Source of the DNA: Candidatus Cloacimonadales bacterium
Lineage (GTDB): Bacteria; Cloacimonadota; Cloacimonadia; Cloacimonadales; DAONDQ01
Assembly: GCA_963662275.1 (NCBI GenBank)
Contig: OY759316.1
Location: 2,592,001-2,656,000 of the forward strand
DNA length: 64,000 nt
Direction of reading: 5' to 3'
A program made the translations under genes and the position numbers. The notes beneath the pieces are model-generated. The model had not been told where the DNA came from. It saw only the letters and a list, made by a program, of their open reading frames with translations, and searched no databases. Shown one piece after another: positions 8,721 through 25,955 of the stretch (within the stretch, counting starts at the first letter, position 1; every line of letters begins with the position of its first letter).

Positions 8721-8753
8721 AAAGGGTAGGCGAAAGTCTACCCTTTCTCTTTT
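8721..8753. terminator. Intrinsic terminator, probably bidirectional
   Basis: aaagggtaggc-gaaa-gtctacccttt hairpin with A/T-rich flanks between convergent genes. Confidence 0.75.
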
Positions 8754-8779
8754 ACTGAAACGCTGAAAAGACAAATATT

Positions 8780-9811
8780 TCAGAACTGCAAATCACTTCT
8801 CCCAATGCTTTGCAGGGCTTTGTTGCAAATCTCAGGGAAGTTCTGGGGATTTTTCAATGTTTCAAACACAACATCCTTCCCAAAACAGTCATGGATAATA
8901 CCCCAAAGATCATTGCCGAAAGTATATAATCTGTAGTGTACTAATTTGGGTATATCCCCAAGCTTTTGATCTTTTGTCAGTGAATTTCTCCAATACTCGT
9001 CAATATGTTTCTCTAAATCTTCTAATGATTTAATTTCCTGTTGCCTGATTCTTCTAATAGTCTCTTTAAATTGTATCATCGTGTTATCAAAATCATTGTT
9101 TAGATACTTCCATGTAAAGCTATCCAATCCTATATTCTTAGGTCCGTCGTATATGGCTTTCGATAAGATACCTTCAGCATTATTACAATATTTAACTGCT
9201 AATCCCTCTCCGGATAAATACAAATAAAACATAGATTCGAGTGATAATGTATTGATATCCATTTCTTTAAAGATTACATTCCACCCAACATGATGCACTT
9301 CATGAGCAATTGTAGAATACAAATCCTTTGATGATTTCTCTTTGATCAGTTGAATGAAATCAAAATGCATTCCATTTCCATAAACATAGCCAAAACTAGG
9401 ACCTAATCCGATCGTAGAAATAAATCTCATTTCAGGGAGTTGGATATCGTCAGGTAAGCCTTTTAAAGCATAATTGATTTGCTCTTGAAAGATAGATTTC
9501 TTAAATATCTTGGGTAATTCTTTTTCCTTAGCATCATACAATTCCAAATTAGCCAATAAATATTGATAATATTTATGGTGCCACTTCAATCGTCCATTAC
9601 TAATATGATCCTCATCCAAGTTGGGTAAATCAAGAAAATATGAAATGAATTCTGCTTCAGATATTTTATTTTTGTATCGTGATAACTCAAACTGATAGTC
9701 TTCATGATTTAATAATTGACGAATTTCTTCCTCTTTTAAATCTCCAGTTTTCAGCTTATGACACAATTGAAGCATCTCAAGAATACTTGAATAACTTATA
9801 CTGAACTCCAT
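8780..9811 (-). CDS. Putative Zn-dependent metallopeptidase (HExxH, DUF5700-like)
   Basis: 'TIAHEVHHVG' followed by 'SGEGLAV'; GAGGAGG RBS. Confidence 0.6.
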   Translation of the reverse strand: MEFSISYSSILEMLQLCHKLKTGDLKEEEIRQLLNHEDYQFELSRYKNKISEAEFISYFLDLPNLDEDHISNGRLKWHHKYYQYLLANLELYDAKEKELPKIFKKSIFQEQINYALKGLPDDIQLPEMRFISTIGLGPSFGYVYGNGMHFDFIQLIKEKSSKDLYSTIAHEVHHVGWNVIFKEMDINTLSLESMFYLYLSGEGLAVKYCNNAEGILSKAIYDGPKNIGLDSFTWKYLNNDFDNTMIQFKETIRRIRQQEIKSLEDLEKHIDEYWRNSLTKDQKLGDIPKLVHYRLYTFGNDLWGIIHDCFGKDVVFETLKNPQNFPEICNKALQSIGRSDLQF

Positions 9812-9910
9812 ATCATTATCCTCCTCTGATAGCGATCATGCTAATAACATATCGATAAATAGCTTTCTCGTCAAGGACTTTCTGGGAATCATTTCCATAT
9901 CTGGAAATAT

Positions 9911-10759
9911 CTAGAAAATCAGGGATGTGATACTTTCTTTTTTGAAGCCAACTGATTCATAGAGTGCAACAGCAGGCTTTGCAGAGTAGTAGACATGAAG
10001 ATAGATAGGATTTGTATTGCATCTTTGCAAGTACCGCAGTATTAGCTCTTTGCCGATTCCTTTACCAACATGGTCGGGATGAACACACATGCAAAATAGG
10101 TAGTTTTTAATATCACCAATTACTAAGCCATTACAGCTTCCTATGATTTCACCTTTAAGCCTGCAAATCTCAGTTATTTTGGGATGCGGTACTTCTTTAA
10201 AATTCATAATTTGCGTCTTCCAATTACTACTCATATAAGGTTTATCCTGGTAAAAGCACTTCTGATGAAATTCTATCAATTCTTCATAATTCGTTATCTC
10301 ATTTTCCCAAGTAAGTCCCTTATTCTGAAATTGTATTTTTGATTCATTTTCACGATATTCTCTGCAATACTTGATTGTATAGTCCTGTATTTTGATAAAA
10401 TCCCTCAGCAATGATGTCAAATCCATACTGTCGAATTTCTTCATGATGACAATATAAGAAATCTGTTTGTCCGTATTTTTGAGGTATTGGATATGTTCTG
10501 CAAAGTCACATACATCTTTTTCAGTTAGGCAGGCATTGATATAGTAATATAGAAAGATGACACTATTTTTTACCTTGAAGTAATAGAAACCCATTACAAG
10601 TGCCTGCTTTTGAAGAATAAACAACTTCTCTTCAGTATTGATGATTTCTATAATTTCTTCTTGATAATCTGTTTTTGAAAAAGAGGAGGTAACCAGGGAG
10701 GCTTCATTTGCAGCAAGGTCTTTCAAAGGGGTGATCTTAATCATAGCAATTTCTACCAT
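9911..10759 (-). CDS. GNAT-family N-acetyltransferase (C-terminal domain)
   Basis: 'CVHPDHVGKGIGKELI' motif A; 'PAVALYESVGF' motif B. Confidence 0.8.
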   Translation of the reverse strand: MVEIAMIKITPLKDLAANEASLVTSSFSKTDYQEEIIEIINTEEKLFILQKQALVMGFYYFKVKNSVIFLYYYINACLTEKDVCDFAEHIQYLKNTDKQISYIVIMKKFDSMDLTSLLRDFIKIQDYTIKYCREYRENESKIQFQNKGLTWENEITNYEELIEFHQKCFYQDKPYMSSNWKTQIMNFKEVPHPKITEICRLKGEIIGSCNGLVIGDIKNYLFCMCVHPDHVGKGIGKELILRYLQRCNTNPIYLHVYYSAKPAVALYESVGFKKESITSLIF

Positions 10760-10927
10760 CGTAACTCCTCATCTATAACTGATACTGATTTAAGAGGCAA
10801 ATCATTATTTTATTCTTTATTTAATGATTTTTTATTGTCAAATTTTATTAATTATTCCGTTTTGATTTTTTTGAAACGCTCAAGCTTAATATATTGTTTG
10901 TAAATACGCTTTTATGAAGGAGCCTAT

Positions 10928-12154
10928 ATGTCATCTGAAATGATCTTGAAGATAACATCCTGTCTAGATGAACTTTGTACAAAATACCCCGACAGATCTG
11001 TTGGCAGTGCCGGTAATCATCATGCGACACGTCTCTTTCGTAAAATAGCATCAGAGTTGGGTTTCCACGTTGAAGAACAAGCCTTTGATTGTCTGGATTG
11101 GCAGGATGGTGAAGTTATTCTTCAATGTGAAAAAAATAATTTCAATGCTTATGCTTCTTCTTATTCAAATGGCTGTAACATAGTTACTGAACTCGTTGAA
11201 GCAGATACAATTGAAAAGCTGGAATTGCTAAATTGTGAGGGCAAGATTCTATTCCTGCATGGAGAACTAACTATCTCCCCCATTATGCCTAAGAATTTCG
11301 TGTTCTATAACCCTGAAGAACATCAGAATCTCATCGCTCTGCTGGAATCAAAAGAGCCTGCAGCTATCATCACTGCTTCCGGGAGTTGCCCTGAGTTGAC
11401 TGGTGCCATCTATCCCTTCCCCGTTTTTGAGGATGGTGATTTTGATATTCCATCCGTATTCATGACTGATACAGAGGGAAACAAACTTTTACCCTATGCA
11501 GGACAGAACTTCATATTGAAATCACATGCCTGTCGCAAGAAAACAAAGGCTAAGCATATCGTTGCCGGAAAAGGAAATCCTAATGCCGGTAAAATTGTCA
11601 TCAGTGCGCATATCGATACAAAGAAGGGCACACCGGGTGCTTTGGATAACGCAGGCGGGGTTATCGTTCTTCTCATCCTAATGGAATTGCTTAAAGATTA
11701 TGATGGAAATTTTCAATTGGAATTTGTACCTTTCAATGGTGAAGATTATTATGGTGTTCCAAGCCAAATGCTCTATCTCATCGATAATCAGGATGCATTG
11801 GATAAAATAGCAATGAATATCAATCTTGATGCAGCAGGTTTGATTGGTGAACGAACGGGTATCTCCTATTACGATGTTAGGGATGAATTGAAAAGAAAAG
11901 CTGAATCTATCTTCTCAGATGAAACGCACTATGTTGAAGCTGAACAGTGGTACCAGGGCGATCACATGATCTTTGTGATGAATGATGTTCCTGCCATTGC
12001 CATATCGACTGAGAATATTATGAAAGTCCTATCTGAAGTGGCTCACACAAAAAAGGATATACCCGGACTAGTTGATCCTGCAATTCTGTTGGATATTGCT
12101 TTGAAACTGAAAGAGCTGATTACAGCTTTAACGCGATCAAATGATAGCAATTAA
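10928..12154 (+). CDS. M28-family aminopeptidase with PA-like insert
   Basis: 'SAHIDT', 'GALDNAGG', 'NGED', 'NINLD', 'GDH', 'HT..D'. Confidence 0.85.
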   Translation: MSSEMILKITSCLDELCTKYPDRSVGSAGNHHATRLFRKIASELGFHVEEQAFDCLDWQDGEVILQCEKNNFNAYASSYSNGCNIVTELVEADTIEKLELLNCEGKILFLHGELTISPIMPKNFVFYNPEEHQNLIALLESKEPAAIITASGSCPELTGAIYPFPVFEDGDFDIPSVFMTDTEGNKLLPYAGQNFILKSHACRKKTKAKHIVAGKGNPNAGKIVISAHIDTKKGTPGALDNAGGVIVLLILMELLKDYDGNFQLEFVPFNGEDYYGVPSQMLYLIDNQDALDKIAMNINLDAAGLIGERTGISYYDVRDELKRKAESIFSDETHYVEAEQWYQGDHMIFVMNDVPAIAISTENIMKVLSEVAHTKKDIPGLVDPAILLDIALKLKELITALTRSNDSN

Positions 12155-12200
12155 ACGTTAAAAAATCGAGATGTCTTCGACAAAAAGAATGATTATTTTC

Positions 12201-13373
12201 TTATTTCAACAGCAGCATCTTCCTGATATTGGTATTCTTACTATCGACTTTCAATCTGCAGAAATAAAGACCGCTGCAGACACACTTGCCTTCCTCATCT
12301 AATCCTCCCCAAAGAAGATTGTGCGTGCCTGCAGCGTATGACATATCTGTTAATGTTTTCACTTTCTGTCCTTTCATATTATAGATTGTAATTTCAACTT
12401 GAGATTTGTTAGTTACATTAAAGCTAACAGTCGTCTCTGGATTGAAAGGATTTGGGTAATTGGTTAGCTGATCATGAGTAGTGAAAACACTCGTCTGATC
12501 ATCGATTCCTGTTGCCAGGGATACTCTTACCCAGTCACCTGCGATATAGTAAGTTAACAGAATGGAATGGTCTCTTGAATCATACGTGGGATATACGAAG
12601 TGATTTCCGGCAAAGATCAATGTCGGAGCTGAAGAGAAATTGGCATCTTCCCGATATAATCCTAATAGATAATAACCAGCGATATAGTAAGTACCATCTA
12701 CATCCCTGACGATACCGTCAGGATTGTTAAGTGTGGTTGTTGCTAGTGTTGTAAATGTGGAATCGGAAAGACTCACTGCATAAATATGACTATTATAAGC
12801 ATCACTGATGACAACAATGCGGTTGTTCTCTCTTTCCAGTAAAATGCCATTGGGTTTCACCAAACTATCGTTCGCCACGAAAGTCCAGTAAGAGTGATCA
12901 CTGATTCTATACTTGTAAATTGTATTCAGGCTTGGACACGAGATGAAGAGATGCCCCAATGAATCGGAAGCAATACTTGATAAATACTTTGTACTTTCTC
13001 CAGCAAAAGTGAAATTTAAAATCTGTTCATCTGTATTCAGATCATAGGCTATTAATTTACGTCCATTCCCAATCCCAAAGACAGTATCTCCCACGATTTC
13101 CATCCCATCAACAAAACCCGCATCCTGATCTAAATAAGTTTGATTTCCATCACTATCTATCTGTACTAGCGCTCCACCTCTTCCATTGGAAACCAATAAG
13201 CGATTACGAACAGCATCGATAACAATCTTTTGAGGGTGACTGAGTAGATTTTGAGCCTGACTGAGTTGAGGAATTGTTAAGCAGATTAAGACGAAAATTA
13301 GCGTAATCATAGGTTTCATATTTAGAATTTTTTGTATCTTTTCCGAACCTTGAACATCTTTCTTTTTCTTCAC
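12201..13373 (-). CDS. Secreted SMP-30/gluconolactonase-like beta-propeller with FlgD-Ig/T9SS-type CTD
   Basis: 'KPNGI', 'NPDGI' propeller motifs; CTD 'NYPNPFNPETT...IYNMKGQKVKTL...SGLYF...KMLLLK'; start GTG 13373 (AAGGAG RBS) or ATG 13319. Confidence 0.7.
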   Translation of the reverse strand: MKKKKDVQGSEKIQKILNMKPMITLIFVLICLTIPQLSQAQNLLSHPQKIVIDAVRNRLLVSNGRGGALVQIDSDGNQTYLDQDAGFVDGMEIVGDTVFGIGNGRKLIAYDLNTDEQILNFTFAGESTKYLSSIASDSLGHLFISCPSLNTIYKYRISDHSYWTFVANDSLVKPNGILLERENNRIVVISDAYNSHIYAVSLSDSTFTTLATTTLNNPDGIVRDVDGTYYIAGYYLLGLYREDANFSSAPTLIFAGNHFVYPTYDSRDHSILLTYYIAGDWVRVSLATGIDDQTSVFTTHDQLTNYPNPFNPETTVSFNVTNKSQVEITIYNMKGQKVKTLTDMSYAAGTHNLLWGGLDEEGKCVCSGLYFCRLKVDSKNTNIRKMLLLK

Positions 13374-13401
13374 GCTTTGACTCCTTGCTTCCTGTTGAGA
13401 T

Positions 13402-14043
13402 TCAATTATTTTTAATCGCTGACATGAATAGATCTAAATACTGATAATAGAATTTCTCTTCATCAAAAACATCCTGGATTTGCTTGGTCTTTTCCGGACT
13501 GAAAGCTACATTCAGGATTGTCCTTAAAGTATATGCAAAGTACTTATCCAGGTAACCAGCATCAATGTTACCCCGTATGCTGTGATCCTGAATTCCTAAT
13601 TCAAATGCATCCCTAACAATGGCAATGATCCTATCGAGAAGATGGTCGAATTGATCATAAAGCTCCAACTCTATTTTACTCTTATCCAGTGAGTTGTAAT
13701 CTTCATACAGATGCAGCTTGAAGTATCCCTGGTTCTGTTTATAGAAGTGATAATACTCTTCACCAAAAGCATAGATTTTAGCATAGCCCGTGCTCTTTCT
13801 ATTCATTTTCTGGCTTAGTAATTCATATCTGCTTCTCATTCCCTCCAAGTGAATATGCATGAAGAGTTCTTCCTTGCTTTTTACGTAAGTGTAGAGTGTT
13901 GATTTGCTGAAACCTGCTGTTAAGGCAACTTCATCAATGGATGTATTTTCGTATCCTTTCTCAAAAAACAGCCTCTTTGCTACTTCGATAATAAAGTCTC
14001 TTTTCAGTTCTGCTTGTCTTTCTTTCAAACTTAACTGTTCCAT
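13402..14043 (-). CDS. TetR/AcrR-family transcriptional regulator
   Basis: 'LFFEKGYENTSIDEVALTAGFSKSTLYTYVKSKEELF' HTH; ATG 14043 after AGAGGT. Confidence 0.92.
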   Translation of the reverse strand: MEQLSLKERQAELKRDFIIEVAKRLFFEKGYENTSIDEVALTAGFSKSTLYTYVKSKEELFMHIHLEGMRSRYELLSQKMNRKSTGYAKIYAFGEEYYHFYKQNQGYFKLHLYEDYNSLDKSKIELELYDQFDHLLDRIIAIVRDAFELGIQDHSIRGNIDAGYLDKYFAYTLRTILNVAFSPEKTKQIQDVFDEEKFYYQYLDLFMSAIKNN

Positions 14044-14082
14044 AATACCTCTATTTTGTGAAATACTACTTACAGTTCTATA

Positions 14083-14103
14083 AATCGTACTCACGGTACG
14101 ATT
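14083..14103. promoter_or_regulatory. Candidate TetR operator abutting the -35 box of the tetR promoter
   Basis: Perfect inverted repeat AATCGTAC-n5-GTACGATT next to minus-strand TTGACA (14103-14108). Confidence 0.6.
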
Positions 14104-14253
14104 GTCAAGGGAATACTTGTAAAATATGTTTATGTTTCAAAAGTAGGAAATCATAATAATAAAAATTGACATCATAATAACAAATACAGTTTTTGTTAAA
14201 GTAATAGATAAATTTTGTTTATCGCTTTTGGGAAAATGAATAAGGGTGGGTAA

Positions 14254-16134
14254 ATGGCAGATACTTTAATTGATTCAGTATTATTGGATTTTTTTCTAAC
14301 ATCATCAGATCCCATTATTCCAATGGATAATGTCCATTTGATAAACGAATTCCTGTCAGCAAGCGATAATGAAGAAAAAACGGAATTAGCACAACGTTTA
14401 ATGATTCAAACCATACGTAACCTCGGTTTTGAAACACGCTGTATTGAAAGAATCCTACAGGGATATATCACTTCACTTTTAAAAGTAGATTACGGGTTCC
14501 GCTGGATAACAAAAGACTATCGTTCTCATTTTCTGCATTCAGTCTATAATTATCTTACAGGTTTGTATTTAATGCGACATGATTTTCTCGGGAATATTCT
14601 TTTCTCTAAAATTGATTTTGAAGCTCTCGACAATATTTATACAAGTCCATCTTCTGAGTTACTACATTCATATCCTCGATGTGATTATGAAAAATTCCAC
14701 AAGCGTTGGGCGATTGCAGCATTTTTCCATGATATTTCATATTTATCCCAAATTAGCTACAATGCAATGAATAAGGAAGCTAAGCACAATTTTCAAACGG
14801 ATAATCAAGTGTTTTCTGTAAGTTTACCACATTTTGAAGATAATGTCCATATTGATGAGACATCGCAAATTAAACATCACTTAAGTGCATTAGTGAACTT
14901 AATTCCTCCATATTTGTTACAACATAATGCCCTCGATATTATTAGCAGTCGTATAGCAGGCAGGCTCGGGACATTCGAAAATGCAGATATCAGGAGATCT
15001 TTAAAAAGAATAATTAAAGAGAATTTTAAAGGAGAATATGGATCACACGATATTTTAAGCGGTCTGTTTGCAATTAAGAAATATTACTATGAATTAAATT
15101 CATATTTTAATAGTACAGAAAATCCGATAACTAGTACAGAAAAAATACAAATCATTCAAGAAATGAAGGATTTTACAGATGCAATCAGCAATGCAGCTCT
15201 TCATCATTATGATAAATATACAGTCGGAATTTTCGAACCAACCAAAAAAGAAAAGATTTCCTGGAAAACATTACCATTATTGTATTTACTGATTCTTGTA
15301 GATGAATTACAGATCTGGAATAGAGAATTAGTATGCGAATTCAAACCAATTGTTTATTATGATCTACAAATAAATGATACTGCATTAAGTGATTGGTTTA
15401 AGGATAATTGGACAAATATGCTCCTGCGTTTTGTTCAATCATATCAAAATATTGACACTACAAAGTCAATGACCTTGGAAATACCTTTTACGAAAAATAT
15501 GCTTAAGCAAATAGATTCATTGAGAAGATTAGGTACACATGATCAATGCAAGATTACTAACCTAATTGAAAATTCTAATTATTCTTATAAAATTTATAAT
15601 GGGAAACTATCAATATCTTTTGTAGTTTGTCCAGTATTAGCACAATTAGAGAATGTGATTAATTTTGAATTATCGAATTATGAAGTTTTACGAATTAAGA
15701 GTGTTCTCGAATCCAGTTGGAAAGAATTTAGTGCAAATCATCAGACATATTCACTTTTCATGGAATATCTGATGCTTTTTGAAGATTTGCTTGAGGAGAA
15801 TAATACCAATAAGGCTTATTCTATTAATAAAAACAATCTAATCAATAAATATCTCGTTAAATCTGACAAATTATATACACAATTAATTTCCTCAGATCAA
15901 CTGTGGATACCTATCGAATGCATAACTTTCAATCATATGAGCAGCTTTGATTCTTCCCATTTAGAGCAATTAGAATTAATGTATGATGGTAAAACTACAC
16001 AAAATATACAATCAATCATGGATCATTGTCTCAATGATTTTAAAAAACATATATCAATTAAAGGAATAAATAACCAGGCTCTTATTCATATCGTAGGTAA
16101 GATAAGAAACATTATTCAAAATTTTATAGCATAA
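14254..16134 (+). CDS. HD-superfamily metal-dependent phosphohydrolase-like protein with uncharacterised C-terminal half
   Basis: 'YRSHFLHS', 'WAIAAFFHDISY' (HD at 14728-14733), 'SHDILSG', 'AALHH', 'LLILVDELQIWNR'. Confidence 0.65.
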   Translation: MADTLIDSVLLDFFLTSSDPIIPMDNVHLINEFLSASDNEEKTELAQRLMIQTIRNLGFETRCIERILQGYITSLLKVDYGFRWITKDYRSHFLHSVYNYLTGLYLMRHDFLGNILFSKIDFEALDNIYTSPSSELLHSYPRCDYEKFHKRWAIAAFFHDISYLSQISYNAMNKEAKHNFQTDNQVFSVSLPHFEDNVHIDETSQIKHHLSALVNLIPPYLLQHNALDIISSRIAGRLGTFENADIRRSLKRIIKENFKGEYGSHDILSGLFAIKKYYYELNSYFNSTENPITSTEKIQIIQEMKDFTDAISNAALHHYDKYTVGIFEPTKKEKISWKTLPLLYLLILVDELQIWNRELVCEFKPIVYYDLQINDTALSDWFKDNWTNMLLRFVQSYQNIDTTKSMTLEIPFTKNMLKQIDSLRRLGTHDQCKITNLIENSNYSYKIYNGKLSISFVVCPVLAQLENVINFELSNYEVLRIKSVLESSWKEFSANHQTYSLFMEYLMLFEDLLEENNTNKAYSINKNNLINKYLVKSDKLYTQLISSDQLWIPIECITFNHMSSFDSSHLEQLELMYDGKTTQNIQSIMDHCLNDFKKHISIKGINNQALIHIVGKIRNIIQNFIA

Positions 16135-16149
16135 TTATAGGAGGATAGC

Positions 16150-19100
16150 ATGGGAACTACGAAAATCTTGAAATATAATCAGGAAAGTATAAATTTTCTG
16201 AGAAGCTTGGAAGAGCATGTAAACAAAGCATATACTACTGACAGAAACTCTACAGCGAAGGAAAATACAGGAAAAATCAAGGAACTTCAAAGAAGACATG
16301 TTGGTTGGACTATGATTTCTTTTGAAGACGATTTTGTTACTAAACTTACTGAAATTCGATTAAATCAGGCAGAAACTAATAATGAAGAGGAAAAAATAAT
16401 TAATGAAATTGATCAATATCTATTGATGCTCTCGCTGTTAGATAATATCTTTTATGGCTATCCTTCTGAAAGATCAATGGAAGATTGTAATGGCAAGCCA
16501 ATTAATAATCACCTAAATAATTGGGTAAGAACATTTTATCATCTTACGCTCATAAATAACAAGGCAGGAGATGATGTAGATAAAAAAAAGGCACACGCAT
16601 ATGAAATTCAAATTTTAATCAAGGATTTTATATCTATACCAAAGGATTTTGCCAGTTCCTATTTTGGGTACGATACCGGGATATCAGGTTTAAACCAACT
16701 CTTGATGGGTGGTTTTCTACTCCCTGAGGACAGTACTGCAATGATAACAGTAGATGGTGAGTCTGGTGTTGGTAAAACAACTTTTGTGGTAAATTTAGTC
16801 TGTGCTATTCTGAAAAATTGTGGAGATACTGTTTTTAAACACAATAGAGATACAATAATACACAAACATGCTGAAAGACTTCCCATATTCATCGATTACT
16901 TCATATTAGAACAGTCTTATAATAATATTAAACGATGCATAACCAACTTTAACTTACTACCCATTCTGAAAGATACCCATGACGTGGTAACAGCAAATCC
17001 AATTGATCCAAAGGATACTGTTTATTATGCTGAAGAACTTGATGGTCTTCTTAATATTTGCCAGAAAAACTCAAGAAAACTTGTTATGTCAATTCACCCT
17101 GTCCCTATGTGTTCTGCCGCAGATTTACTTCAACAGGTTCAAAAATGTGAAGAACCTTTTCAAGCAAAAAGCGTACTTGAAGATAGACACATCATTGTAA
17201 TCGATTCAATCAATGCAGTTTTGGATATGGATATTGAGCAATCTAAATGGCGACAGGTATTACAGGCATTACGCTCTATACTTGGTGGAAAGAAATCTAA
17301 ATGCCCAAATGAAGGAAAAAATAAAAAAGAAAACAATACAATATTGATCCTAACTCAAGAAAAAGACCCTTCCAAAAAGGATACAATGGTTGAGTATTTC
17401 TGCGATGTCGTCATGGGGTTTGAAAAGAAAAATATCAACGGTGAATACCTTCGATATATTGAATTGATCGAAAGCCGTTTTCAGGATATGTGTTTCGGAA
17501 GACATCCCTTCCATTTTTCAACTAAAGGGCAAGCTTCCTTTGGGATCTACCCTTCAGCCTCTGCTTTAATGGAATTAATTCCCAACCAATTAAAACAGAT
17601 TCAGCCAGATAAAAAAACACTTGAGTTTGGAATAAAAATCGATGGAATCCTGAAATTCTTTGTGAATACCCATTTGAAGAATAGCGGCATGAAACCATAT
17701 TTTCTTAAGAATTCAGTCAGTAATCTCAATGGCGAAAAAGGATGTAATAAATCTGCATTTTCAAAGTTCTTTACACTAAGTTCATATCGGGATGAAAGAT
17801 GGATATCCATGTCTGAAAGAGCATTTGAAAATGATCTTTACGAAACAGAAGTTACAGATAAGGAGTGCTATCATGAAATGAATTATTCTGAAAAAGAAGC
17901 TGACAAAATATGGAATGAAATAAAAGAAATGAAACCATATCCAAAATCTTATAACCCTGCAAATCCTTCGGAAACTGAAAAGCATTGTAATCCGATAGAT
18001 AAAGCAATCGGGATGATTGTAAAATTTGGGGAAAACTATGAAGAAAATGAACATGATGTGGTTATTGATGCACCTTGGGGAAAAGTAATCATACCAGCAA
18101 ATGCATTAAAAGTAGAACCTAAATTCTGGGGGAGAGTATCAGATGTTATTTGTCATTTTGAAGTAAAAAATTTCTCTGAAGAATACTATCTTGAACAAAT
18201 CATGGATGTCATTCGTGCAATAGAATCATATCATGTATATGAAGAAATCCCTAAAACTTTTGAGAACTTGCTTAGAAGAATGAAATTATCAAGGATATTG
18301 TGGGAGAAGACTAGTTTACGAGAACCAGAAGTAGAAGCAACTCCTAATAATGTGGAATTTAGCCCATCGTTTGCTATTTATAAAGATAAGGACTACATTA
18401 ATGATAATTCTAATGTTAAAGTAGAAGATAGGAATATCTACAATTCATCTATTTTCTTCTATCATGAATCATTACCAATCAAAGTAAGAAGGTTGGTGTT
18501 GGATAATACAGAAAACCTGATCGATATTTTCAAGCAAATCGATGCCCAGGATTTTATCACAACCATTACTCATTTCGGTTTGGCAAAGGGAATTACGATC
18601 TTAATTGTCAATCAAGTCGGTAGGGGATCTCGCAATCAGATCAATGACATTTGCAATGCCATTGCTGATAATATTTTTGAATTCCAGAGAGAATACTTTT
18701 GCGGAGGCTGGTATTCAGTACTTCATATCAAGCGATCATCAAACAGTTGGCATAATCGAATGTACTATAACATTTATAAAAGGCACGATGAGCTTTTGGA
18801 ATTGCAGGATACATTTTCCTTTATATCAAGTTTTCATAATGAACTGAAGGAGTTAATACCAATTCGTCTATTTCTCCCTGGAAAATCACAAGCTGAAATT
18901 GATATGTATGCGAATCTATCTATTGCCTTAAATCCTTCAAATAGAGATTTTCCAGATATGAATTATAGTATTGAAAGAGATAAGAGATTACCATATAAGG
19001 ATTCACACGAACAGTGGCATACATATCTGAAAGAAATGATCATCTACAGTATGACACATCCGCAAGTGGAAGTAATTAAGGCAAGTGATCCATTTACGGA

Positions 19101-20448
19101 CATTTCTATTATCATAGAAGATGAAAGCGTTAAGGATGCTTTGACGATTAGTTGTATTCCCGGTCACTTAATCAAAAGGTATAAGACAAATTTACTCAGG
19201 CTTACAGATTTTATCAATTTCAGTCCTCGGGACAACCAGCTTCCTTTCATTGATAATGCGGTTGATTTCATAGCTGATACTTGGATGGAAATTGGTAATC
19301 TCAATTCTACAACACCCAACGGTAGATTCGGCAAGACTCATTACTACCTTAAACCTTCCTCTCTTCAATTTATCTCTAATGAGTCAAATAGAGACAATTG
19401 TCACTTTTCCTGGATAGAACCTGACCTGCTTTTTAACCCTGTGATTGATATCAGCCATCACAGTGATTCTGATGTTCAAACAGCACATGCTCTTGCCTAT
19501 CCTTTTTATATCAATCCAAGGTTTGATCTGATAATCCGCCATAAAGATGCTAAAGATGCTAAAGATGATAAGGTGAAATATCATTTCGGTTCGACAACGA
19601 CAGAAGATTACTTCACATTTTTCATGGAGCTATTGTTTAAGAATAGGTCTATTAGGAATTCCGTGGCTGAATTTATAAGCAATGCAAGTGAATCAAGTAT
19701 AGGATATCAAATAAATGATATTCCTTTTGCACAGAAAGATACAGAGGATATTACAAACCATACTTTTATTTCCAGAAACTGGTTTTCATCACACCAGCAA
19801 TTTATTGATATTTTAAAAAGCAATTTATCCCCAGAAGAATTTAGTAATATGTGTTTTAAATATATCGTTCCAAAAGTATTCTCTTATTCAACCTGGTATT
19901 TAGGCGTACCACTTAATAGTCCGCGAAAAGACAGAGCCTGTGAGATTATTGTCAAAATGACTGAATATCATGATTTAGCGAATTTCCAACTGAATGGCAT
20001 CGGTATTCAATTGGGAAATTACGCTTTCAGGGATGAATGTTATAAATATTACCCTCATTTAGCATATCATGAAATTCTAACCGGAATAGGGAACATCCAT
20101 TCTTTCCGTGATAATGCAAATCATAATAGTACCGGTATTCCTTTGGCTTCCATGGATTGTTTTTATGAATTAATTACTCCCATTGGAGGTTTGCTGCAAA
20201 ATGTACATCAAATGCTCAAATCCACTATGTCATCTTGTCCTTTGAATAGCGATCTAATATCAAGGATTATTGGTCAAATTACTAATATTTTCACAGCATA
20301 TACCTCGGACAATTTATGTAATGAATGCTATTTCAATTATCTGACAAATATAAATAGAGAAAAGTTATCTCGACGAGCCTGTGATTGTTGGTTAGGTGCG
20401 TTATTCGGTTTAGTACAATCAGATTGTCCCGAGGAAAATAATTGTTAG
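16150..20448 (+). CDS. Large KaiC/RAD55-like double RecA-fold ATPase with solute-binding-protein-like C-terminal region
   Basis: 'TGISGLNQLLMGG', Walker A GESGVGKT, 'YFILEQ', Walker B 'IIVIDSIN', 'EYFCDVV', 'RYIELIESRFQ...GRHPF'; second degenerate domain 'GEKGCNKS...RRLVLDN...IADNI'; AGGAGG RBS 15 nt after the upstream stop. Confidence 0.7.
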   Translation: MGTTKILKYNQESINFLRSLEEHVNKAYTTDRNSTAKENTGKIKELQRRHVGWTMISFEDDFVTKLTEIRLNQAETNNEEEKIINEIDQYLLMLSLLDNIFYGYPSERSMEDCNGKPINNHLNNWVRTFYHLTLINNKAGDDVDKKKAHAYEIQILIKDFISIPKDFASSYFGYDTGISGLNQLLMGGFLLPEDSTAMITVDGESGVGKTTFVVNLVCAILKNCGDTVFKHNRDTIIHKHAERLPIFIDYFILEQSYNNIKRCITNFNLLPILKDTHDVVTANPIDPKDTVYYAEELDGLLNICQKNSRKLVMSIHPVPMCSAADLLQQVQKCEEPFQAKSVLEDRHIIVIDSINAVLDMDIEQSKWRQVLQALRSILGGKKSKCPNEGKNKKENNTILILTQEKDPSKKDTMVEYFCDVVMGFEKKNINGEYLRYIELIESRFQDMCFGRHPFHFSTKGQASFGIYPSASALMELIPNQLKQIQPDKKTLEFGIKIDGILKFFVNTHLKNSGMKPYFLKNSVSNLNGEKGCNKSAFSKFFTLSSYRDERWISMSERAFENDLYETEVTDKECYHEMNYSEKEADKIWNEIKEMKPYPKSYNPANPSETEKHCNPIDKAIGMIVKFGENYEENEHDVVIDAPWGKVIIPANALKVEPKFWGRVSDVICHFEVKNFSEEYYLEQIMDVIRAIESYHVYEEIPKTFENLLRRMKLSRILWEKTSLREPEVEATPNNVEFSPSFAIYKDKDYINDNSNVKVEDRNIYNSSIFFYHESLPIKVRRLVLDNTENLIDIFKQIDAQDFITTITHFGLAKGITILIVNQVGRGSRNQINDICNAIADNIFEFQREYFCGGWYSVLHIKRSSNSWHNRMYYNIYKRHDELLELQDTFSFISSFHNELKELIPIRLFLPGKSQAEIDMYANLSIALNPSNRDFPDMNYSIERDKRLPYKDSHEQWHTYLKEMIIYSMTHPQVEVIKASDPFTDISIIIEDESVKDALTISCIPGHLIKRYKTNLLRLTDFINFSPRDNQLPFIDNAVDFIADTWMEIGNLNSTTPNGRFGKTHYYLKPSSLQFISNESNRDNCHFSWIEPDLLFNPVIDISHHSDSDVQTAHALAYPFYINPRFDLIIRHKDAKDAKDDKVKYHFGSTTTEDYFTFFMELLFKNRSIRNSVAEFISNASESSIGYQINDIPFAQKDTEDITNHTFISRNWFSSHQQFIDILKSNLSPEEFSNMCFKYIVPKVFSYSTWYLGVPLNSPRKDRACEIIVKMTEYHDLANFQLNGIGIQLGNYAFRDECYKYYPHLAYHEILTGIGNIHSFRDNANHNSTGIPLASMDCFYELITPIGGLLQNVHQMLKSTMSSCPLNSDLISRIIGQITNIFTAYTSDNLCNECYFNYLTNINREKLSRRACDCWLGALFGLVQSDCPEENNC

Positions 20449-20614
20449 AAGTTTTTGATAAAATTCGATGCTCAAACATAATTTAGATAAATACTAGTAC
20501 CTTGATAAGTATCACTTTACACTAGATTGGGGAGTCTCTGTATTGTGTAAACTATCTATCCTTTGCATCAGCAAGCATTTCATGAATTTTCTATACACTT
20601 GGATTTTCGGAATC

Positions 20615-21955
20615 CTAATTAAGATGCATGATTTTACGAACCTGAGTTTCCTCTCCTTGTATAGTTTTCAGGAAATAGATACCAGATGCCAGATCTTTTT
20701 CATTAATGTTCAATACCTGGTTGGGAAAAGCATCTACAGATTTAACAAGTTGACCTTTTAAATTATACAGGCGTAGAGTCACACTAGTGTTTGATCTGCT
20801 CTTGATCATCAAATGCAAATCAGTTGTAAAAGGATTTGGAAATACGGTTACTGTCATCCTCTGAACAGAAGGAATATTACTATCATCATTCAATGTTGGA
20901 GGTTGCCATGTAGTGGTAATCCGTTGCTCATATTCAGGGACAGAGTTATTCAAATGATAAGCTGTTTCCACAATTTGGTTACCGTCCTGTGAAACAGCAA
21001 ATTCCTTTGATTGATAATTTACCCAATTCGGATCTGAAAAAGTTTGGGTAGTGATGGTGGATAGATGATTATTTTCATAAGTAAAGAGCAATTGATTTTG
21101 CATTAACCAATCATGGTCATACCAGCTCTGATCAAGAAGATCATCAATCAAGGGAAAACTCTGATTCGATAAAATCCAATCATAAGGGTTATCTGTTTGT
21201 CCAATGATATCGTTGATAGAGCCAACAGACACTTCCAAGCCTTTTCCAAGAGTTATTGGTAAAAGATGGGAAATCAAATTGATGAACGAAACACCGGTTG
21301 TTGCATCGTTCGAGTTATAAACCCTGGTCACATTCTCATAATTTACCCAATTAAGTGAGTCCTGTGATGTCAGAATCAATTCGCTAATTATCCTACCTCG
21401 GTTATCCAGTTCAAAAGAACTCTTTTTAAATATAGAGGTTTGAAAGCCAGGTTTCCAGGTATAAACTGTATCCAAATCCTGGTTATTATAGAGGATTCCC
21501 ATGCGAAGATTATCATTGAATATCCCCGTGAAGATGTCCTTATTTGCCAAATTCAGGGCAACGATTCGATTTTCAGAATCATACGATACTCTTAACCGTT
21601 GCACTGGATTCATTGGGGTAATATACACCATAGCATTCGTTACATAATGATGAGTAGGTTCATAACTGAATACAGTTTTGCTATTAATTATCCAACTACC
21701 GCTATTAATATCCCAGTTGTAGGTCAGAAGACTATCCACCGAATTGGTGACTGTGTCATTATAATAAAATTCATCCCTGGCATTTATATGCCAGCCGAAA
21801 TTATCGATAATCTCACGTACCTGGCTTAAAACCAGAGTATTACGATAATTATCTTTGACACCTGATTTCACAGCGATGCCAGAGAGATTATTACTGATGG
21901 AAAAAAATAATGTAGGAATAACAAGAAAGCTCAAAAAAAGGTAAATATTCTTCAC
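20615..21955 (-). CDS. Secreted protein with T9SS-type C-terminal sorting domain
   Basis: GTG 21955 after GGAGG; signal peptide; repeated 'W.N...' motifs; CTD 'VFPNPF...LYNLKGQLV...LASGIYFL...RKI'. Confidence 0.72.
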   Translation of the reverse strand: MKNIYLFLSFLVIPTLFFSISNNLSGIAVKSGVKDNYRNTLVLSQVREIIDNFGWHINARDEFYYNDTVTNSVDSLLTYNWDINSGSWIINSKTVFSYEPTHHYVTNAMVYITPMNPVQRLRVSYDSENRIVALNLANKDIFTGIFNDNLRMGILYNNQDLDTVYTWKPGFQTSIFKKSSFELDNRGRIISELILTSQDSLNWVNYENVTRVYNSNDATTGVSFINLISHLLPITLGKGLEVSVGSINDIIGQTDNPYDWILSNQSFPLIDDLLDQSWYDHDWLMQNQLLFTYENNHLSTITTQTFSDPNWVNYQSKEFAVSQDGNQIVETAYHLNNSVPEYEQRITTTWQPPTLNDDSNIPSVQRMTVTVFPNPFTTDLHLMIKSRSNTSVTLRLYNLKGQLVKSVDAFPNQVLNINEKDLASGIYFLKTIQGEETQVRKIMHLN

Positions 21956-22075
21956 TAATGGTACCTCCAATCTTTAATAGATTGACTTGATTGGAAATAG
22001 TATGAATGTTGTCAAGTAATTAACTATCGCAATATCAAATAAGAAATCATTCGGTTATCGGGAAGTATATTTATT

Positions 22076-22522
22076 TCAATCAGCGAACAAACTGGAAATT
22101 TTTAAACGAAGGATGTGTAAATCTGGAAAACAAATGAGGAGATAGTGGTCTATTACGAGGAAGTAAGCCCAGAAACTGATAGGTCCAAGCCTTTTAGGTA
22201 GAGCAGCATGAAATTTTGGAATAATTGATGGTAAACTTATCTGTGATTGCTGTTTTCCCCAAAAAGCGGTTTCATCGTTATGTGCTTTGGTTTTAATTAT
22301 ATGCTTACCCTCGGGGTATTCACTGATCAAAGGATTGGATGGAATCTCCTTTTTCCTTTTCGAAGGCAGCCAGGCATACAACTCCTCTACTCTACTTATC
22401 AAAGATAAATGTGCTTTCAGAGCTTTAATGGCTTTCCGTAAATCCTCCAAATCTCCGATAGTCTCTGCTTCGCTCCAGAGTAATATATCTTCATTGTCAA
22501 AAGCCAGATGCAAAGCTATCAT
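22076..22522 (-). pseudogene. Probable truncated remnant resembling the N-terminus of an SNF2/DEAD-type helicase
   Basis: 'MIALH...LLWSE...AWLPS...PSNPLI' resembles helicase N-termini from memory; has AGGA RBS and upstream TTGAC but no helicase motifs follow. Confidence 0.35.
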
Positions 22523-22601
22523 ATGAAAATCCTTTATCGAGTAAGAAGAAAGCTCTATTATGACGAGGAATAAACGTCAAGAATTGATTCCTCTATGTAA
22601 T

Positions 22602-22632
22602 TTCGAACTTCGAACTTCGAACTTCGTACTTC
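22602..22632. repeat. Heptamer tandem tract (TTCGAAC) x4
   Basis: ttcgaac ttcgaac ttcgaac ttcgtac ttc. Confidence 0.8.
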
Positions 22633-22782
22633 CCATGATCCCCGTAGGGAAGAAACATATTAACACTGGATTTTAATCCGGTGATATGATAAATGTGATC
22701 TAAAGGTCTCTCCGGAACGCTGTTTTCAAACGGCTATGCAGGTTTTAAGGCGCATTGCCATGACCCCTGCTCTGCTTGAATT

Positions 22783-22820
22783 CAATCCGTAGGATGTCAC
22801 TCTGTTAGCCCAGGAAGTCC
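22783..22820. repeat. 38-bp dispersed repeat (second copy 48824-48861)
   Basis: caatccgtaggatgtcactctgttagcccaggaagtcc vs caatccgtaggatgtaattctgctagcccaggaagtcc, 3 mismatches. Confidence 0.85.
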
Positions 22821-22960
22821 GTTCTCTGAACTGCAAATCTTCACTCTTCCATCTTCGAACTCCAAATCTTCAATCATCCATTTTCAATCTTCAATCAAAG
22901 CACTCTACTCTCCTCTCTTTCTTGGCTCTACAGAACCATAATTGAACCCCTTAATTTATA

Positions 22961-23059
22961 CCAGTTTCAATCTAGTTTCAATCCTGTTTCATTCCTGTTT
23001 CGTCAAATAGGATAGAGATTGGTAGGGGATTGGTAGGGGATTGGATTTTGATTGGTAGT
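22961..23059. repeat. 11-bp periodic tract that inverts orientation mid-way (related tract at 48991-49056)
   Basis: ccagtttcaat/ctagtttcaat/cctgtttcatt/cctgtttcgtc then aaataggatag/agattggtagg/ggattggtagg/ggattggattt/tgattggtagt. Confidence 0.75.
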
Positions 23060-23454
23060 GTCTTTGGGGTTCGAATTGTGATTATAACTATTCCAATTGA
23101 GGTTTCTGTTTCAGATGCAGAGAATCAAACTCTCTCGAAAAGATGGGCGTACTTCCGCACGCCCCTACTGCCACCCTCTCTTCATCTGAAGGGAGAAATG
23201 GGTCAGTGTGGATATTTCGGAGTGAGAGAGCATAGTGTACGCTCCAACAGAGCCACGTCTTCGGAAAAATAGAGCCACCTAATTCGGAGATGAGAGCCAC
23301 TCTTCTATTTTCAATAATTAATACAGGTAATATACAAAAAAATAAGCTATAACTAATCTTTTTGCGACGGCTGCCGTGAAGTGAGGCCGTAGGCCGAGCG
23401 AAGCGGCAGCCGTCGCCGGGAAAGTTGTAGTACCATCCCAAGTATTAACTATCG

Positions 23455-24201
23455 TTATTCTTTCTTAATGCCATTGCGTTCTCTCATTGACACTTTACCA
23501 TCGATAAAAATAGGATAGGAATCGTGTATAATCCGGTCAAGGATGGCATCGGCAAGGGTTTCCTGACCAATCTTCTCATGCCATCCTCCGGTTCTGAACT
23601 GAGAACAGAAGATCGTTGATGAGTGCTGATGCCTCGCTTCGATAATCTCCAAAAGATCTCTTGCCTCTTGTTCTCTGAGTGGTGTCAGCAGCCATTCATC
23701 AAGTATCAGCAGTTTGATCTGCTTGTATTGTTTTATGACTTTCTTAAAAATACCTTCACCTCTGGCAACTGCCAGGTCATCCAGCAATTCGGGAAGTCGT
23801 ATATATCTGACAGGATAATAGTTCCGGCAGGCTGCTATCCCGAAAGCACAACCCAGCCAGGATTTCCCGTTTCCTGATGCTCCCATAATGATTATATTCC
23901 GATTTTCGCTGATGTAACTGCAGGTTGATAAACGGATAATCTCAGATCGATCCAGCTTTCTGTCATCATGATATTCTACGTCTTCAATACTTGCCTGGCT
24001 GAACTTCAAGTTTGCCTTCTTAATTAGCCTCTGCAGTCTGTTATTTTTGCGTCTGGCCCATTCAGCATCTACGAGCAGACTGAAGCGTTCTTCGAAAAGC
24101 AAATCCTTAAATGCACCATCATGTAATTGCTGGCAGAAAGTATCAGCCATAGCACTCAAATGCATCTCGTGAAGCTTATTGACTGTTGATTGGCTGATCA
24201 T
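23455..24201 (-). CDS. istB: IS21 helper ATPase IstB
   Basis: Walker A 'GASGNGKS', 'LLILDEW', 'ADAILDRI'; 4-bp overlap with istA. Confidence 0.95.
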   Translation of the reverse strand: MISQSTVNKLHEMHLSAMADTFCQQLHDGAFKDLLFEERFSLLVDAEWARRKNNRLQRLIKKANLKFSQASIEDVEYHDDRKLDRSEIIRLSTCSYISENRNIIIMGASGNGKSWLGCAFGIAACRNYYPVRYIRLPELLDDLAVARGEGIFKKVIKQYKQIKLLILDEWLLTPLREQEARDLLEIIEARHQHSSTIFCSQFRTGGWHEKIGQETLADAILDRIIHDSYPIFIDGKVSMRERNGIKKE

Positions 24202-25742
24202 TTATTTTTCCTCCCGTAGTAGTCTGCACCTCTGGTAATACCAAAATCAGAAGCAGGATCATTCTTTGCAGTCTCTGCCGCATTATTGATCTTATCAAAA
24301 CCCGTCTTGAGTATGGTTTGGATATTTTTATAACCGGGATTGGGTGTATAAGATAATGCCCTTTGACATGCACTTTCGAGCCTCTGCACAGAATACCTGT
24401 CAGCTGATTTCAGAAGTGCCATACAGGAACGGTATCCCTGCTGTTCAACACGATAGGATGCCAGAATAGACTTAATTACGATCATCGTATGTTCCCCTAT
24501 TTCCTTTGCCCAGGAGATAAACCTCTCTGCATTCCATTCCTGATATTTCTGATGCTGTTCAGGCATATGTTCAGGGAGTGTCTGATACTGACCGGGATGA
24601 CCAAATTTCCTGACATGGGAAGCGATTCTGTTGGAGTTATAGAAAACCTCGACAACTCTGCTTGTGATGCGTACATCCACATAGTATTTTATGTATTCAT
24701 AAGGAACCGAATAGTACATCTTATCCACGCTTATATGATAATTGAACTGTACTGTTGCCTTTGACCAGGCAGCAAGCTCATATGGCGACAATGACAATGG
24801 AATAAGCATGGGCTGTTCTTCTGCCTGAAAGACACTTTCTCTGCTTCCTTCTTTCTTTTGAAAGGGCTTGGTATTGAACTCTCCCAGTTTTTCCCTGATT
24901 GACATATTGAGTTCATGAAGCGAAAAGAATGTCTGGTTTCGCAAGGCAGCAATGATCCAGGTTGAGATGACTCCAACTGTGCCTTCTGCACTGGGCTTAT
25001 CCTTTGGTCTTCTAACTCTGGCAGGTATTACCGCAGTATCGTAATAAGCAGACATTTCTCCATAGGTTCTGTTGATAACGGGAGTATACCACGACACATG
25101 GTCAACTCCCGTCTTAAGATTATCAGGAACAAGTATTTTAGTAACTCCATTAAAGTACTTGAAGCTATTTATATGAGCCTGAATCCAGCTTTCCATATTC
25201 ATGGAAAGAAAGGCTTCCACATAGGAATAACCACTGTACGGGAGGGTTGCTACAAAAACATAGGCTTTGATCGGTTCACCGGTAATGTTGTTTTTGATGG
25301 CGGCAGTCTGTCCAGCCCAGTCCACTTCCAGCTTTTCTCCTGGTTTGTGTTTTATTCGCATGGTTGCTTTTGTCTTTTGTGAGTAATCATGGTAATGTTT
25401 GCAAAATTGCGTATACTTGTAGGGAATAGCCTGATTATTCCTGCATCCCTCAGAGTATTCATGCCAGAGTAGCGACAGTGTTACACCACTCTTGGCAAGT
25501 TCCTTGTGTATGTGTTCATAATCAGGCATCTTCTGCGGGTTTGACGATAAGTAAGCCGGAAAGAGCTGCTCTTCGATCATCTCATTTGTTAATGTATCAG
25601 GAAGCGGCCATTCAAGGCTCTGGTCTGTTGCCCTTTGAATGATCATCGACACGTTATTGCGGGAACAGGATAAACTCGCCGCTATGCCTCGTCTGCTTAT
25701 TCCCTGGCTGTGTAAGCGAAGGATCTCTCGGTAATTGGTCAT
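24198..25742 (-). CDS. istA: IS21 transposase IstA
   Basis: N-terminal HTH; DDE 'EVDWAG', 'VPDNLKTGV', 'PKDKPSAEG'; ATG 25742 after GGAGG. Confidence 0.95.
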   Translation of the reverse strand: MTNYREILRLHSQGISRRGIAASLSCSRNNVSMIIQRATDQSLEWPLPDTLTNEMIEEQLFPAYLSSNPQKMPDYEHIHKELAKSGVTLSLLWHEYSEGCRNNQAIPYKYTQFCKHYHDYSQKTKATMRIKHKPGEKLEVDWAGQTAAIKNNITGEPIKAYVFVATLPYSGYSYVEAFLSMNMESWIQAHINSFKYFNGVTKILVPDNLKTGVDHVSWYTPVINRTYGEMSAYYDTAVIPARVRRPKDKPSAEGTVGVISTWIIAALRNQTFFSLHELNMSIREKLGEFNTKPFQKKEGSRESVFQAEEQPMLIPLSLSPYELAAWSKATVQFNYHISVDKMYYSVPYEYIKYYVDVRITSRVVEVFYNSNRIASHVRKFGHPGQYQTLPEHMPEQHQKYQEWNAERFISWAKEIGEHTMIVIKSILASYRVEQQGYRSCMALLKSADRYSVQRLESACQRALSYTPNPGYKNIQTILKTGFDKINNAAETAKNDPASDFGITRGADYYGRKNK

Positions 25743-25955
25743 TGCATTGACCTCCATGAATTGATTTACACTGATACAGTGCATTAATTCATGTTGGTTT
25801 TTTCTTTCAAAATAGCAAGGTGGCTCTATTTTAGCGAAGACGTGGCTCTAAAACTCCGTACAAGTGGCTCTCATTTAGAATATTATTCAGTCAGTGATAC
25901 GAGATCAAACCAGATTGCATTAGAATACAAGTTCAGAGCATTGCAGTCTAACTTT

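Follow-up and report, generated by a model that had tools for sequence, protein, structure and literature searches.

A conserved, self-contained pair of genes, in which a predicted and very divergent enzyme of the HD/phosphodiesterase (PDE) superfamily is encoded directly upstream of a giant KaiC-like ATPase, is reported here from Candidatus Cloacimonadales bacterium. The pair lies in a stretch of 64,000 nucleotides (nt), hereafter the window, comprising positions 2,592,001 to 2,656,000 of contig OY759316.1 in GenBank assembly GCA_963662275.1. Gene 1 (protein P0001) occupies positions 14254..16134 of the plus strand of the window, starts with ATG, ends with TAA at 16132-16134 and encodes 626 amino acids. 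Gene 2 (P0002) follows on the same strand at 16150..20448, likewise from an ATG, and encodes a multidomain protein of 1432 amino acids. The two genes had been singled out as a candidate two-gene system in a first-pass annotation made from the letters of the DNA, which described co-oriented genes 15 nt apart with a strong ribosome-binding site; the spacing is indeed 15 nt, and a Shine-Dalgarno-like AGGAGG (16139..16144, plus strand) stands 5 nt ahead of the ATG of gene 2 at 16150.

Conservation of the gene pair

Gene 1 was found directly upstream of gene 2 and on the same strand in six of the six distinct loci with context, which are made up of two diverged copies in the genome of the window (G000), one locus in each of three related genomes of Cloacimonadota and one in a metagenome lineage. 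The contexts counted leave out P0006 (ENA), P0007 (labelled Aminicenantes at NCBI) and P0008-P0016. Every locus counted comes either from a genome of a single order, which the titles of L006 and L007 place in Cloacimonadota, or from a metagenome contig that stands close to these genomes. The second copy in G000 (G000:C1:1125131-1131510) has the same gene order with a gap of 8 nt, and the paralogues are 66-68% identical for gene 1 and 62-65% for gene 2. In a pattern scan that covered 185,579 species with one genome each, gene 2 turned up in two metagenome-assembled genomes of Cloacimonadota, L006 and L007 (genomes G087 and G084, respectively), where a gene 1 homologue of 646 or 632 amino acids lies immediately upstream (BLASTP E 2e-39 and 7e-47). 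A metagenome scan with gene 1 gave three contigs (L008, L009 and L010), each with the giant gene directly downstream; L008 and L009 share open reading frames (ORFs) of 635 and 1448 amino acids and were counted as one lineage, and L010 shares sequence with L007. Within the order, 4 of 203 genomes harbour gene 1 (G000, G084, G087 and G141), the three others all with an adjoining gene 2. The genes of the pair are separated by 15 nt in L006/G087 and overlap by 19 nt in L007/G084/L010 and by 4 nt both in L008/L009 and in G141, where gene 2 is cut by the contig end.

The window copy is 25-27% identical to the copies in other genomes for gene 1 and 33-34% for gene 2, full-length gene 2 homologues range from 33-65% identity, and the two genes have diverged to similar degrees between loci. 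The flanking genes, on the other hand, differ at every locus, and none is conserved; the pair is therefore self-sufficient. The co-occurrence of HD and KaiC genes, for which the first-pass annotation had proposed a survey of homologues, is thereby supported at every distinct locus with context. A co-folding run that combined the N-terminal part of gene 2 (residues 1-480) with the C-terminal part of gene 1 (395-626) scored 0.00, which amounts to no verdict and was used neither way.

Gene 1 is a predicted HD/PDE-superfamily enzyme

Gene 1 encodes H92 and H95, H159-D160, H265, H317 (followed by H318) and D350, so that the H..H / HD / H / HH / D ligand set read by the first-pass annotation is present, though the second His of the 'HH', H318, is not conserved in the gene 1 family, and neither is D266. 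A pattern of the form H...HD...H...H...D is characteristic of HD enzymes with two-metal sites. In a 22-member alignment R90, H92, H95, F148, R151, W152, H159, D160, Y163, H317, P341, D350, E351, Q353, W355 and R357 are at least 90% conserved, and H265 is invariant among the four gene 1 proteins with a giant ATPase as partner. The family is a small one. When 1.84 billion representative proteins were searched (HMMER) with a profile built from gene 1 and the paralogue in the same genome, 24 proteins were found at E <= 0.001, of which 13 also passed 1e-10 and 9 passed 1e-30, the query being included in each count; a further search with a family alignment added only P0031 and P0032 among its best 8,000 candidates.

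The predicted HD/PDE-like catalytic domain, supported by conserved alignment columns, AlphaFold2 (AF2) modelling and VIA-align structure comparison, extends over residues ~23-363 (14320..15342, plus strand) and holds all the residues of the ligand set. The AF2 model of residues 1-400, built from 27 sequences, reached a predicted local distance difference test score (pLDDT) of 84.8 and a predicted template modelling score (pTM) of 0.83, and a full-length model from a 2-sequence alignment was unusable (pLDDT 33.9). When the good model was scanned against 48,161 chains with VIA-align, the top match was YhaM (166 residues aligned) at Z 9.3, a middling value given the tool's own caution that Z below ~13 may be unspecific for helical proteins. 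PDE9A scored equally (Z 9.3, 199 aligned) and was accompanied by a dozen other class I phosphodiesterases, the 'HD superfamily hydrolase' 2pq7 was found at Z 7.8, and SAMHD1, HD-GYP, PPX/GppA, YqeK, PhnZ and SpoT were ranked as well (top rows Z 9.3-6, with 126-208 residues aligned and 5-14% identity of gene 1 to any solved chain). Among the best 50 rows, 28 have phosphodiesterase, HD, HD-GYP, SAMHD1 or phosphohydrolase in their titles, and most of those remaining (YhaM, PPX/GppA, YqeK, PhnZ, SpoT, SidE) we take to be of HD/PDE type. The proposal that gene 1 adopts an HD fold is thus borne out by the model and by top rows that are almost all HD/PDE. On the motifs and the fold list combined, we accept gene 1 as a very divergent enzyme of the HD/PDE superfamily, as predicted from both.

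The C-terminal region of gene 1 (residues ~400-626; 15451..16131, plus strand) has no Pfam match on residues 351-626. It is kept in the gene 1 forms that are paired with the giant ATPase and missing from the stand-alone relatives of ~400 amino acids (P0020, P0022, P0024, P0026, P0027 and P0029). Pfam models at E <= 0.01 found nothing in the 23 other family members, save for an unrelated TIM-barrel domain (AP_endonuc_2) in P0025, behind which the HD-like domain is fused, and a search of the family profile against PDB sequences gave one chance row (E 0.2). Other relatives are larger: P0021, P0023, P0028 and P0030 (812-970 amino acids) combine the HD-like domain with further regions without family match.

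Gene 2 is a giant KaiC-like ATPase

Gene 2 opens with a variable N-terminal region (residues 1-165; 16150..16644, plus strand), in which family-wide identity per block of 50 amino acids is 0.07-0.24. The KaiC/RecA-like domain 1 follows at residues ~170-470 (16657..17559, plus strand) and contains a Walker A motif, GESGVGKT (203-210), the glutamate E254 and a Walker B motif, VID (350-352), all of which are invariant in the gene 2 family. The KaiC model PF06745 matches gene 2 with 47 bits against a cut-off of 26.6, its homologues with 55-70 bits, and the gene 2 family profile finds KaiC chains in the PDB at E 3e-8. The PF06745 model also matches the RadA-like and RecA genes of this genome.

The second RecA/KaiC-like domain (residues ~490-905; 17617..18864, plus strand) opens with the motif G-I-K-I-D-G-I. 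Its P-loop, GEKGCNKS (528-535), is degenerate in that the second Gly is replaced (GDRGC[HN]K[ST] in relatives), and the domain also has a large insert and the sequence LVLD at 782-785. Its KaiC match stays below the cut-off (18.6 bits, E 0.0013 on a fragment, residues 775-852), and when domains 1 and 2 were compared by hhalign the P-loop alone aligned (E 0.0044, probability 7.8). Judged by these motifs and scores, the first-pass description of one intact and one degenerate KaiC-like domain appears a fair one, the family membership of the second domain being less firm. The models NACHT, nSTAND3 and nSTAND_NTPase5 reach 11-19 bits on gene 2 against cut-offs of 27-34 and touch the P-loop only, and the NCBIfam DnaB match (E 0.11) is not significant. 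The highest 19-residue Kyte-Doolittle means, 1.43 and 1.63 for the gene 1 and gene 2 proteins, are below the level of a membrane helix.

The C-terminal region of gene 2 (residues 944-1432, ~490 amino acids; 18979..20445, plus strand) contains four cysteines that are invariant in five C-terminal domains and include a CxxC: C1264, C1337, C1390 and C1393, encoded on the plus strand at 19939-19941, 20158-20160, 20317-20319 and 20326-20328. They may form a metal or iron-sulphur site; a WhiB match in one member of this domain family (E 0.22) is at chance level. The first-pass annotation had called the C-terminus ligand-binding-like, and one unaligned feature search agrees with it: in the ESM Atlas, residues 960-1432 fall with clusters of the solute-binding protein families SBP_bac_8 and SBP_bac_1 (score 0.94, 131 of 256 features shared), which by the tool's own statistics is a lead, 170 shared features being typical of true family members. 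Three sequence and profile tests gave the claim no support: Pfam gave nothing at E <= 10 in five of five members, a PDB profile search found no family, and hhalign against a 30-sequence SBP_bac_8 profile returned a probability of 0.24. On the language-model lead, the C-terminus may be a sensor that resembles a solute-binding protein. Long proteins with an SBP_bac_8 match (760-836 amino acids) are encoded elsewhere in G000 and by its relatives (e.g. G000:C1:1894081-1895043 and 3909264-3910109), and in G000 they stand beside ordinary solute-binding proteins of ~435 and ~360 amino acids.

The pair as an accessory element

Gene 1 is patchily distributed: three of the 57 genera in the order have it, and a 99%-complete genome of the same genus (G001) lacks it. 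The pair has a guanine plus cytosine (GC) content of 32.9% (gene 1 30.2%, gene 2 34.0%) as compared with 39.05% for the 4.38-Mb genome. This places it in the lowest 0.5% of all 6.2-kb segments of the genome, in line with the first-pass remark that the genes are visibly AT-rich, and the paralogous pair is in the lowest 2.7%.

Proposed function and alternative explanations

These observations are consistent with a model in which the pair would be a self-contained, horizontally mobile two-gene operon. Gene 2 would provide a large cytoplasmic ATPase on a KaiC/RecA-type scaffold, with one catalytically competent domain and a second, degenerate nucleotide-binding domain that is probably regulatory; its N-terminal extension and the C-terminal domain of ~490 residues probably sense a trigger, and by analogy with KaiC the protein may be expected to form a ring. 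Gene 1 would be a divergent metal-dependent phosphoesterase of the HD/PDE superfamily, with a ligand set typical of a two-metal site. When the sensor region is engaged, the ATPase would change state on ATP binding or hydrolysis, and this change would release or activate the HD enzyme, which could then hydrolyse nucleotides, cyclic nucleotides or nucleic acids. That the ATPase physically controls the HD enzyme is suggested by the structure of the operon.

The role that we rank first, tentatively and with somewhat less than even confidence, is one in inter-genomic conflict, i.e. defence against phages or mobile elements by an ATP-driven sensor-switch over an HD effector. It is ranked first because of the patchy distribution, the atypical composition, the duplication and the self-sufficiency of the pair, and because of a NACHT fusion in the gene 1 family. 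This fusion, P0031 (1264 amino acids, from the Logan source), has the HD-like domain at its N-terminus, followed by a NACHT nucleoside triphosphatase (NTPase) and HEAT repeats. Its N-terminus holds all the HD-like motifs (YRDHLNH, FHDIGY, DHG, LHN and LILVD) and aligns with the gene 1 HD-like family by hhalign over motifs I-II with a probability of 98.7 (E 3e-16). In the signal-transducing ATPases with numerous domains (STAND), the N-terminal position is normally that of the effector.

A number of results weigh against this role and against the parts from which it is built. The NACHT fusion is one sequence only. Recognisable defence genes stand beside the pair in none of the six loci, and the check for defence islands that had been proposed at the outset found no locus in one. 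No viral contig was found with the gene 2 alignment or with the six stand-alone gene 1 relatives, and tblastn of P0001 and P0022 gave no plasmid match; the anti-phage role put forward by the first-pass annotation thus drew no support from neighbouring genes or from viral or plasmid records. PADLOC v2 (PADLOC-DB v2.0.0) gave no match for gene 1 (sole row E 0.34) and only a sub-threshold mad8 for gene 2 (E 0.0056, or 3e-6 on P0007), and the relatives of both proteins gave the same picture. On the side of the enzyme, gene 1 has no Pfam match at E <= 1, PF01966 HD included, and no NCBIfam or PADLOC family. The Foldseek comparison that the first-pass annotation had called for returned nothing from the PDB at E <= 0.001 with the good model, and the top Z of the VIA-align list is middling. 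By hhalign gene 1 did not align significantly with a profile of the 13 Pfam-positive HD domains of this genome (probability 2.7, E 0.017), although in the same run H95 lined up with the first His of the template and H159-D160 with its HD motif. For the putative sensor, the gene 2 C-terminus, Pfam, the PDB profile search and hhalign gave no support for a fold.

A bolder form of the conflict role, which we consider doubtful, would see in the pair a new class of immune or conflict module. A giant double-RecA ring of KaiC type, rather than a STAND, AAA+ or ABC ATPase, would then be the switch, with a sensor possibly derived from a solute-binding protein and bearing the four invariant cysteines, and it would gate new two-metal HD phosphoesterases, such that an invader, or a small molecule made by it, leads to nucleotide depletion or to degradation of nucleic acids.

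Second in rank, and in our judgement unlikely, is a housekeeping switch in which the KaiC-like ATPase senses a metabolite through its SBP-like C-terminus and thereby adjusts the activity of an HD phosphodiesterase. The substrate of this enzyme would be a second messenger (cAMP, c-di-GMP, c-di-AMP or (p)ppGpp), and the switch would serve adaptation to stress or nutrients and not conflict. Class I cyclic-nucleotide phosphodiesterases, HD-GYP and SpoT are indeed among the structural matches of gene 1, the ESM Atlas lead to SBP_bac_8/SBP_bac_1 for gene 2 residues 960-1432 would suit a metabolite sensor, and the pair has housekeeping neighbours and lies in no defence island. Non-clock KaiC homologues are reported to be tied to stress resistance (10.1101/2022.01.26.477890). 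Against a housekeeping device stand the extreme rarity and patchiness of the family (24 members among 1.84 billion representative proteins, 4 of 203 genomes, absence from a same-genus genome), the atypical GC content and the presence of two diverged copies in one genome. Moreover, the loci have no conserved cyclase or other enzyme that makes a messenger near the pair, and the SBP-like C-terminus failed the Pfam, PDB-profile and hhalign tests.

The pair might also be a nucleic-acid motor with its nuclease, i.e. a RecA/KaiC ring translocase or helicase like RadA/Sms or DnaB and an HD nuclease like YhaM or the HD domain of Cas3, at work in defence or repair. YhaM is joint first among the structural matches of gene 1 (Z 9.3, 166 aligned), the KaiC model also matches the RadA-like and RecA genes of the genome, there is the weak DnaB match (E 0.11), and the six-ligand H, HD, H, H, D pattern of gene 1 is one that also occurs in Cas3 HD nucleases. 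This we hold to be improbable, and to rank third, as Pfam detected no DNA- or RNA-binding domain in either protein, the DnaB match is not significant and the KaiC-type matches are far stronger than those to helicases, and PADLOC, its Cas3 models included, gave no match. That the genes are unrelated and have been co-inherited within one order by an accident of gene order, with no functional coupling, would fit the origin of all six loci from one order or closely related metagenome contigs, but is very improbable given the 25-34% identity between loci while all flanking genes differ, the overlaps of 4-19 nt in three loci and gaps of 8-15 nt in three, the duplication of the pair as a unit in this genome, and the long C-terminal extension that gene 1 has in its paired forms and not in its stand-alone relatives of ~400 amino acids.

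Relation to known systems

The closest known counterparts of gene 2 are the KaiC clock ATPase and its non-clock homologues: domain 1 matches PF06745 and KaiC chains in the PDB and has the Walker A motif, catalytic Glu and Walker B motif, and a second, putatively RecA-like domain follows the first, as in the CI-CII tandem of KaiC. Gene 2 differs from KaiC in being about three times longer, with an N-terminal extension of 165 amino acids and a C-terminal domain of ~490 amino acids, and in the insert of ~230 amino acids and degenerate P-loop of its domain 2. The partner, moreover, is an HD protein and not KaiA or KaiB as in KaiABC. Membership of a Kai clock was rejected on a lack of KaiB (PF07689, 0 matches in this 99.97%-complete genome; KaiA was not searched for).

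With the STAND and NOD-like receptor (NLR)-like antiviral ATPases, such as Avs and bNACHT, the pair has in common a predicted hydrolytic effector, a P-loop switch and a large putative C-terminal sensor, and the HD-like domain of gene 1 is the N-terminal module of the NACHT-HEAT protein P0031. In contrast to these, the NTPase of gene 2 is of RecA/KaiC type and the putative effector is a separate gene. Gene 2 was not assigned to STAND, the NACHT and nSTAND models touching its P-loop only and below cut-off.

As for the HD phosphohydrolases and class I phosphodiesterases (YhaM, PDE9A, SAMHD1/dGTPase, HD-GYP, YqeK), gene 1 shares with them an all-helical predicted fold, the H...HD...H...H...D ligands and Z scores of 9.3-6. 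It departs from them in having no Pfam HD or PDE match and 5-14% identity to solved chains, in the family signature R-S-H-x-x-H-S plus L-I-L-x-D-E-x-Q-x-W-x-R, and in its C-terminal extension of 230 amino acids.

The mad8 protein of MADS (PADLOC PDLC04140) is weakly similar to the first ATPase domain of gene 2 (E 0.0056 for the window protein, 3e-6 for P0007). A place in MADS was rejected, this similarity being sub-threshold and confined to the P-loop domain; other MADS genes were neither seen nearby nor looked for. Cas3 couples a metal-dependent HD domain to an ATP-driven P-loop motor, as the pair may do, with the difference that the putative motor of the pair is of RecA/KaiC type and not of superfamily 2 (SF2). 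Neither cas genes nor a PADLOC Cas3 match were found, and Cas3 was set aside as well.

The statement that the pairing is not a named system holds: no PADLOC v2 system matched, and full-text literature searches found no description of an HD and KaiC-like pairing. In their main text, two comparative genomic studies of NTPase conflict systems (PMC7159879 and PMC12803255) have 0 occurrences of KaiC or HD terms. The superfamilies of the parts and the effector-switch-sensor logic are known; the novelty lies in the combination, in the HD family and in the giant KaiC architecture.

To our knowledge, KaiC-type ATPases have been described almost exclusively as timers, of the clock or of stress. HD enzymes are hydrolases of nucleotides or nucleic acids. 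A conserved operon of the two would represent a new build of ATP-gated effector switch, parallel to STAND/NLR, and this significance holds all the more because an HD-like relative is fused to a NACHT protein. If the conflict role is true, the pair would follow the effector-NTPase-sensor logic of STAND/NLR with two genes and a switch based on KaiC; if the pair is not defensive, it would still be a signalling device that has yet to be explored, in a phylum (Cloacimonadota) of which few members have been cultured. In either case gene 1 defines a protein family without a Pfam, NCBIfam or PADLOC model, and at 6.2 kb the pair is small enough for direct heterologous expression.

Genomic surroundings of the pair

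The pair is wedged between opposite-strand genes, as the first-pass annotation had stated: upstream is a TetR-family gene (13402-14094, minus strand), and downstream a gene for a protein with a type IX secretion (T9SS) sorting tail (20615-21970, minus strand). The stretch that separates gene 1 from the divergent TetR-family gene (14095..14253, plus strand) is presumed to hold the promoter; 35 promoter-like matches were found in it against a mean of 34.9 in shuffled sequence, and no promoter was therefore assigned. A search of sequencing runs gave five DNA runs from two studies and no RNA run. Across the loci, the neighbours include a TetR regulator, T9SS-secreted proteins, a C25 peptidase, DNA ligase, LptF/G, electron transfer flavoprotein (ETF), a radical-SAM protein, a tandem deoxynucleoside kinase, RecA and ABC exporters. 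The kinase gene (L006 12830-14284), whose product of 484 amino acids matches deoxynucleoside kinase twice, follows the pair on the same strand at a distance of ~530 nt and is not conserved at other loci. The paralogous pair in G000 adjoins a giant ORF of more than 4165 amino acids (G000:C1:1132504 onward; L042 1505-13999), open at the end of the locus, the first 1998 residues of which hold at least 19 CHB_HEX_C_1 / Fn3_assoc repeats.

Mobile DNA stands 3-7 kb downstream of the window pair, which, with the patchy distribution and the low GC content, speaks for a mobile and accessory character of the pair. An intact element of the insertion sequence (IS) family IS21 occupies 23249-25849, with 32-nt terminal inverted repeats (23249-23280 and 25818-25849) that are 94% complementary, and encodes IstB (23455-24201, minus strand) and the transposase IstA with a Mu-transposase C-terminal domain (istA, 24198-25784, minus strand). 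It is followed by a DDE_Tnp_1 transposase gene (26278-27600) and by tRNA-Pro(CGG) (27658-27734). No island boundaries could be defined. A search for a repeat of the tRNA-Pro 3' end, such as would mark an island, matched the tRNA itself alone, direct repeats flanking the pair were nothing better than chance-like matches of 18-32 nt, and a DNA search of window positions 7400-23400 against the same-genus genome G001 gave matches of 31-196 nt only, so that no comparison with an empty site was possible. Stretches of 31-61 nt at window positions ~22595-22645 and 23007-23067 recur with 79-94% identity in 12 different contigs of G001 and thus point to a small dispersed repeat.

The first-pass annotation had seen no kaiA, kaiB, transporter or response regulator nearby. 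For kaiB this extends to the whole genome, as given above, and KaiA was not searched for; the nearest transporters, the ABC exporter genes at 27920-31538, and the nearest sensor-kinase-like gene, at 4858-6843, are each ~7.5 kb from the pair. The latter encodes a tetratricopeptide repeat (TPR) protein of 661 amino acids that ends in a histidine-kinase-type HATPase_c domain, and it is convergent to a gene at 1198-4794 for an AAA_16 ATPase of 1198 amino acids with many TPR repeats and a STAND-like architecture.

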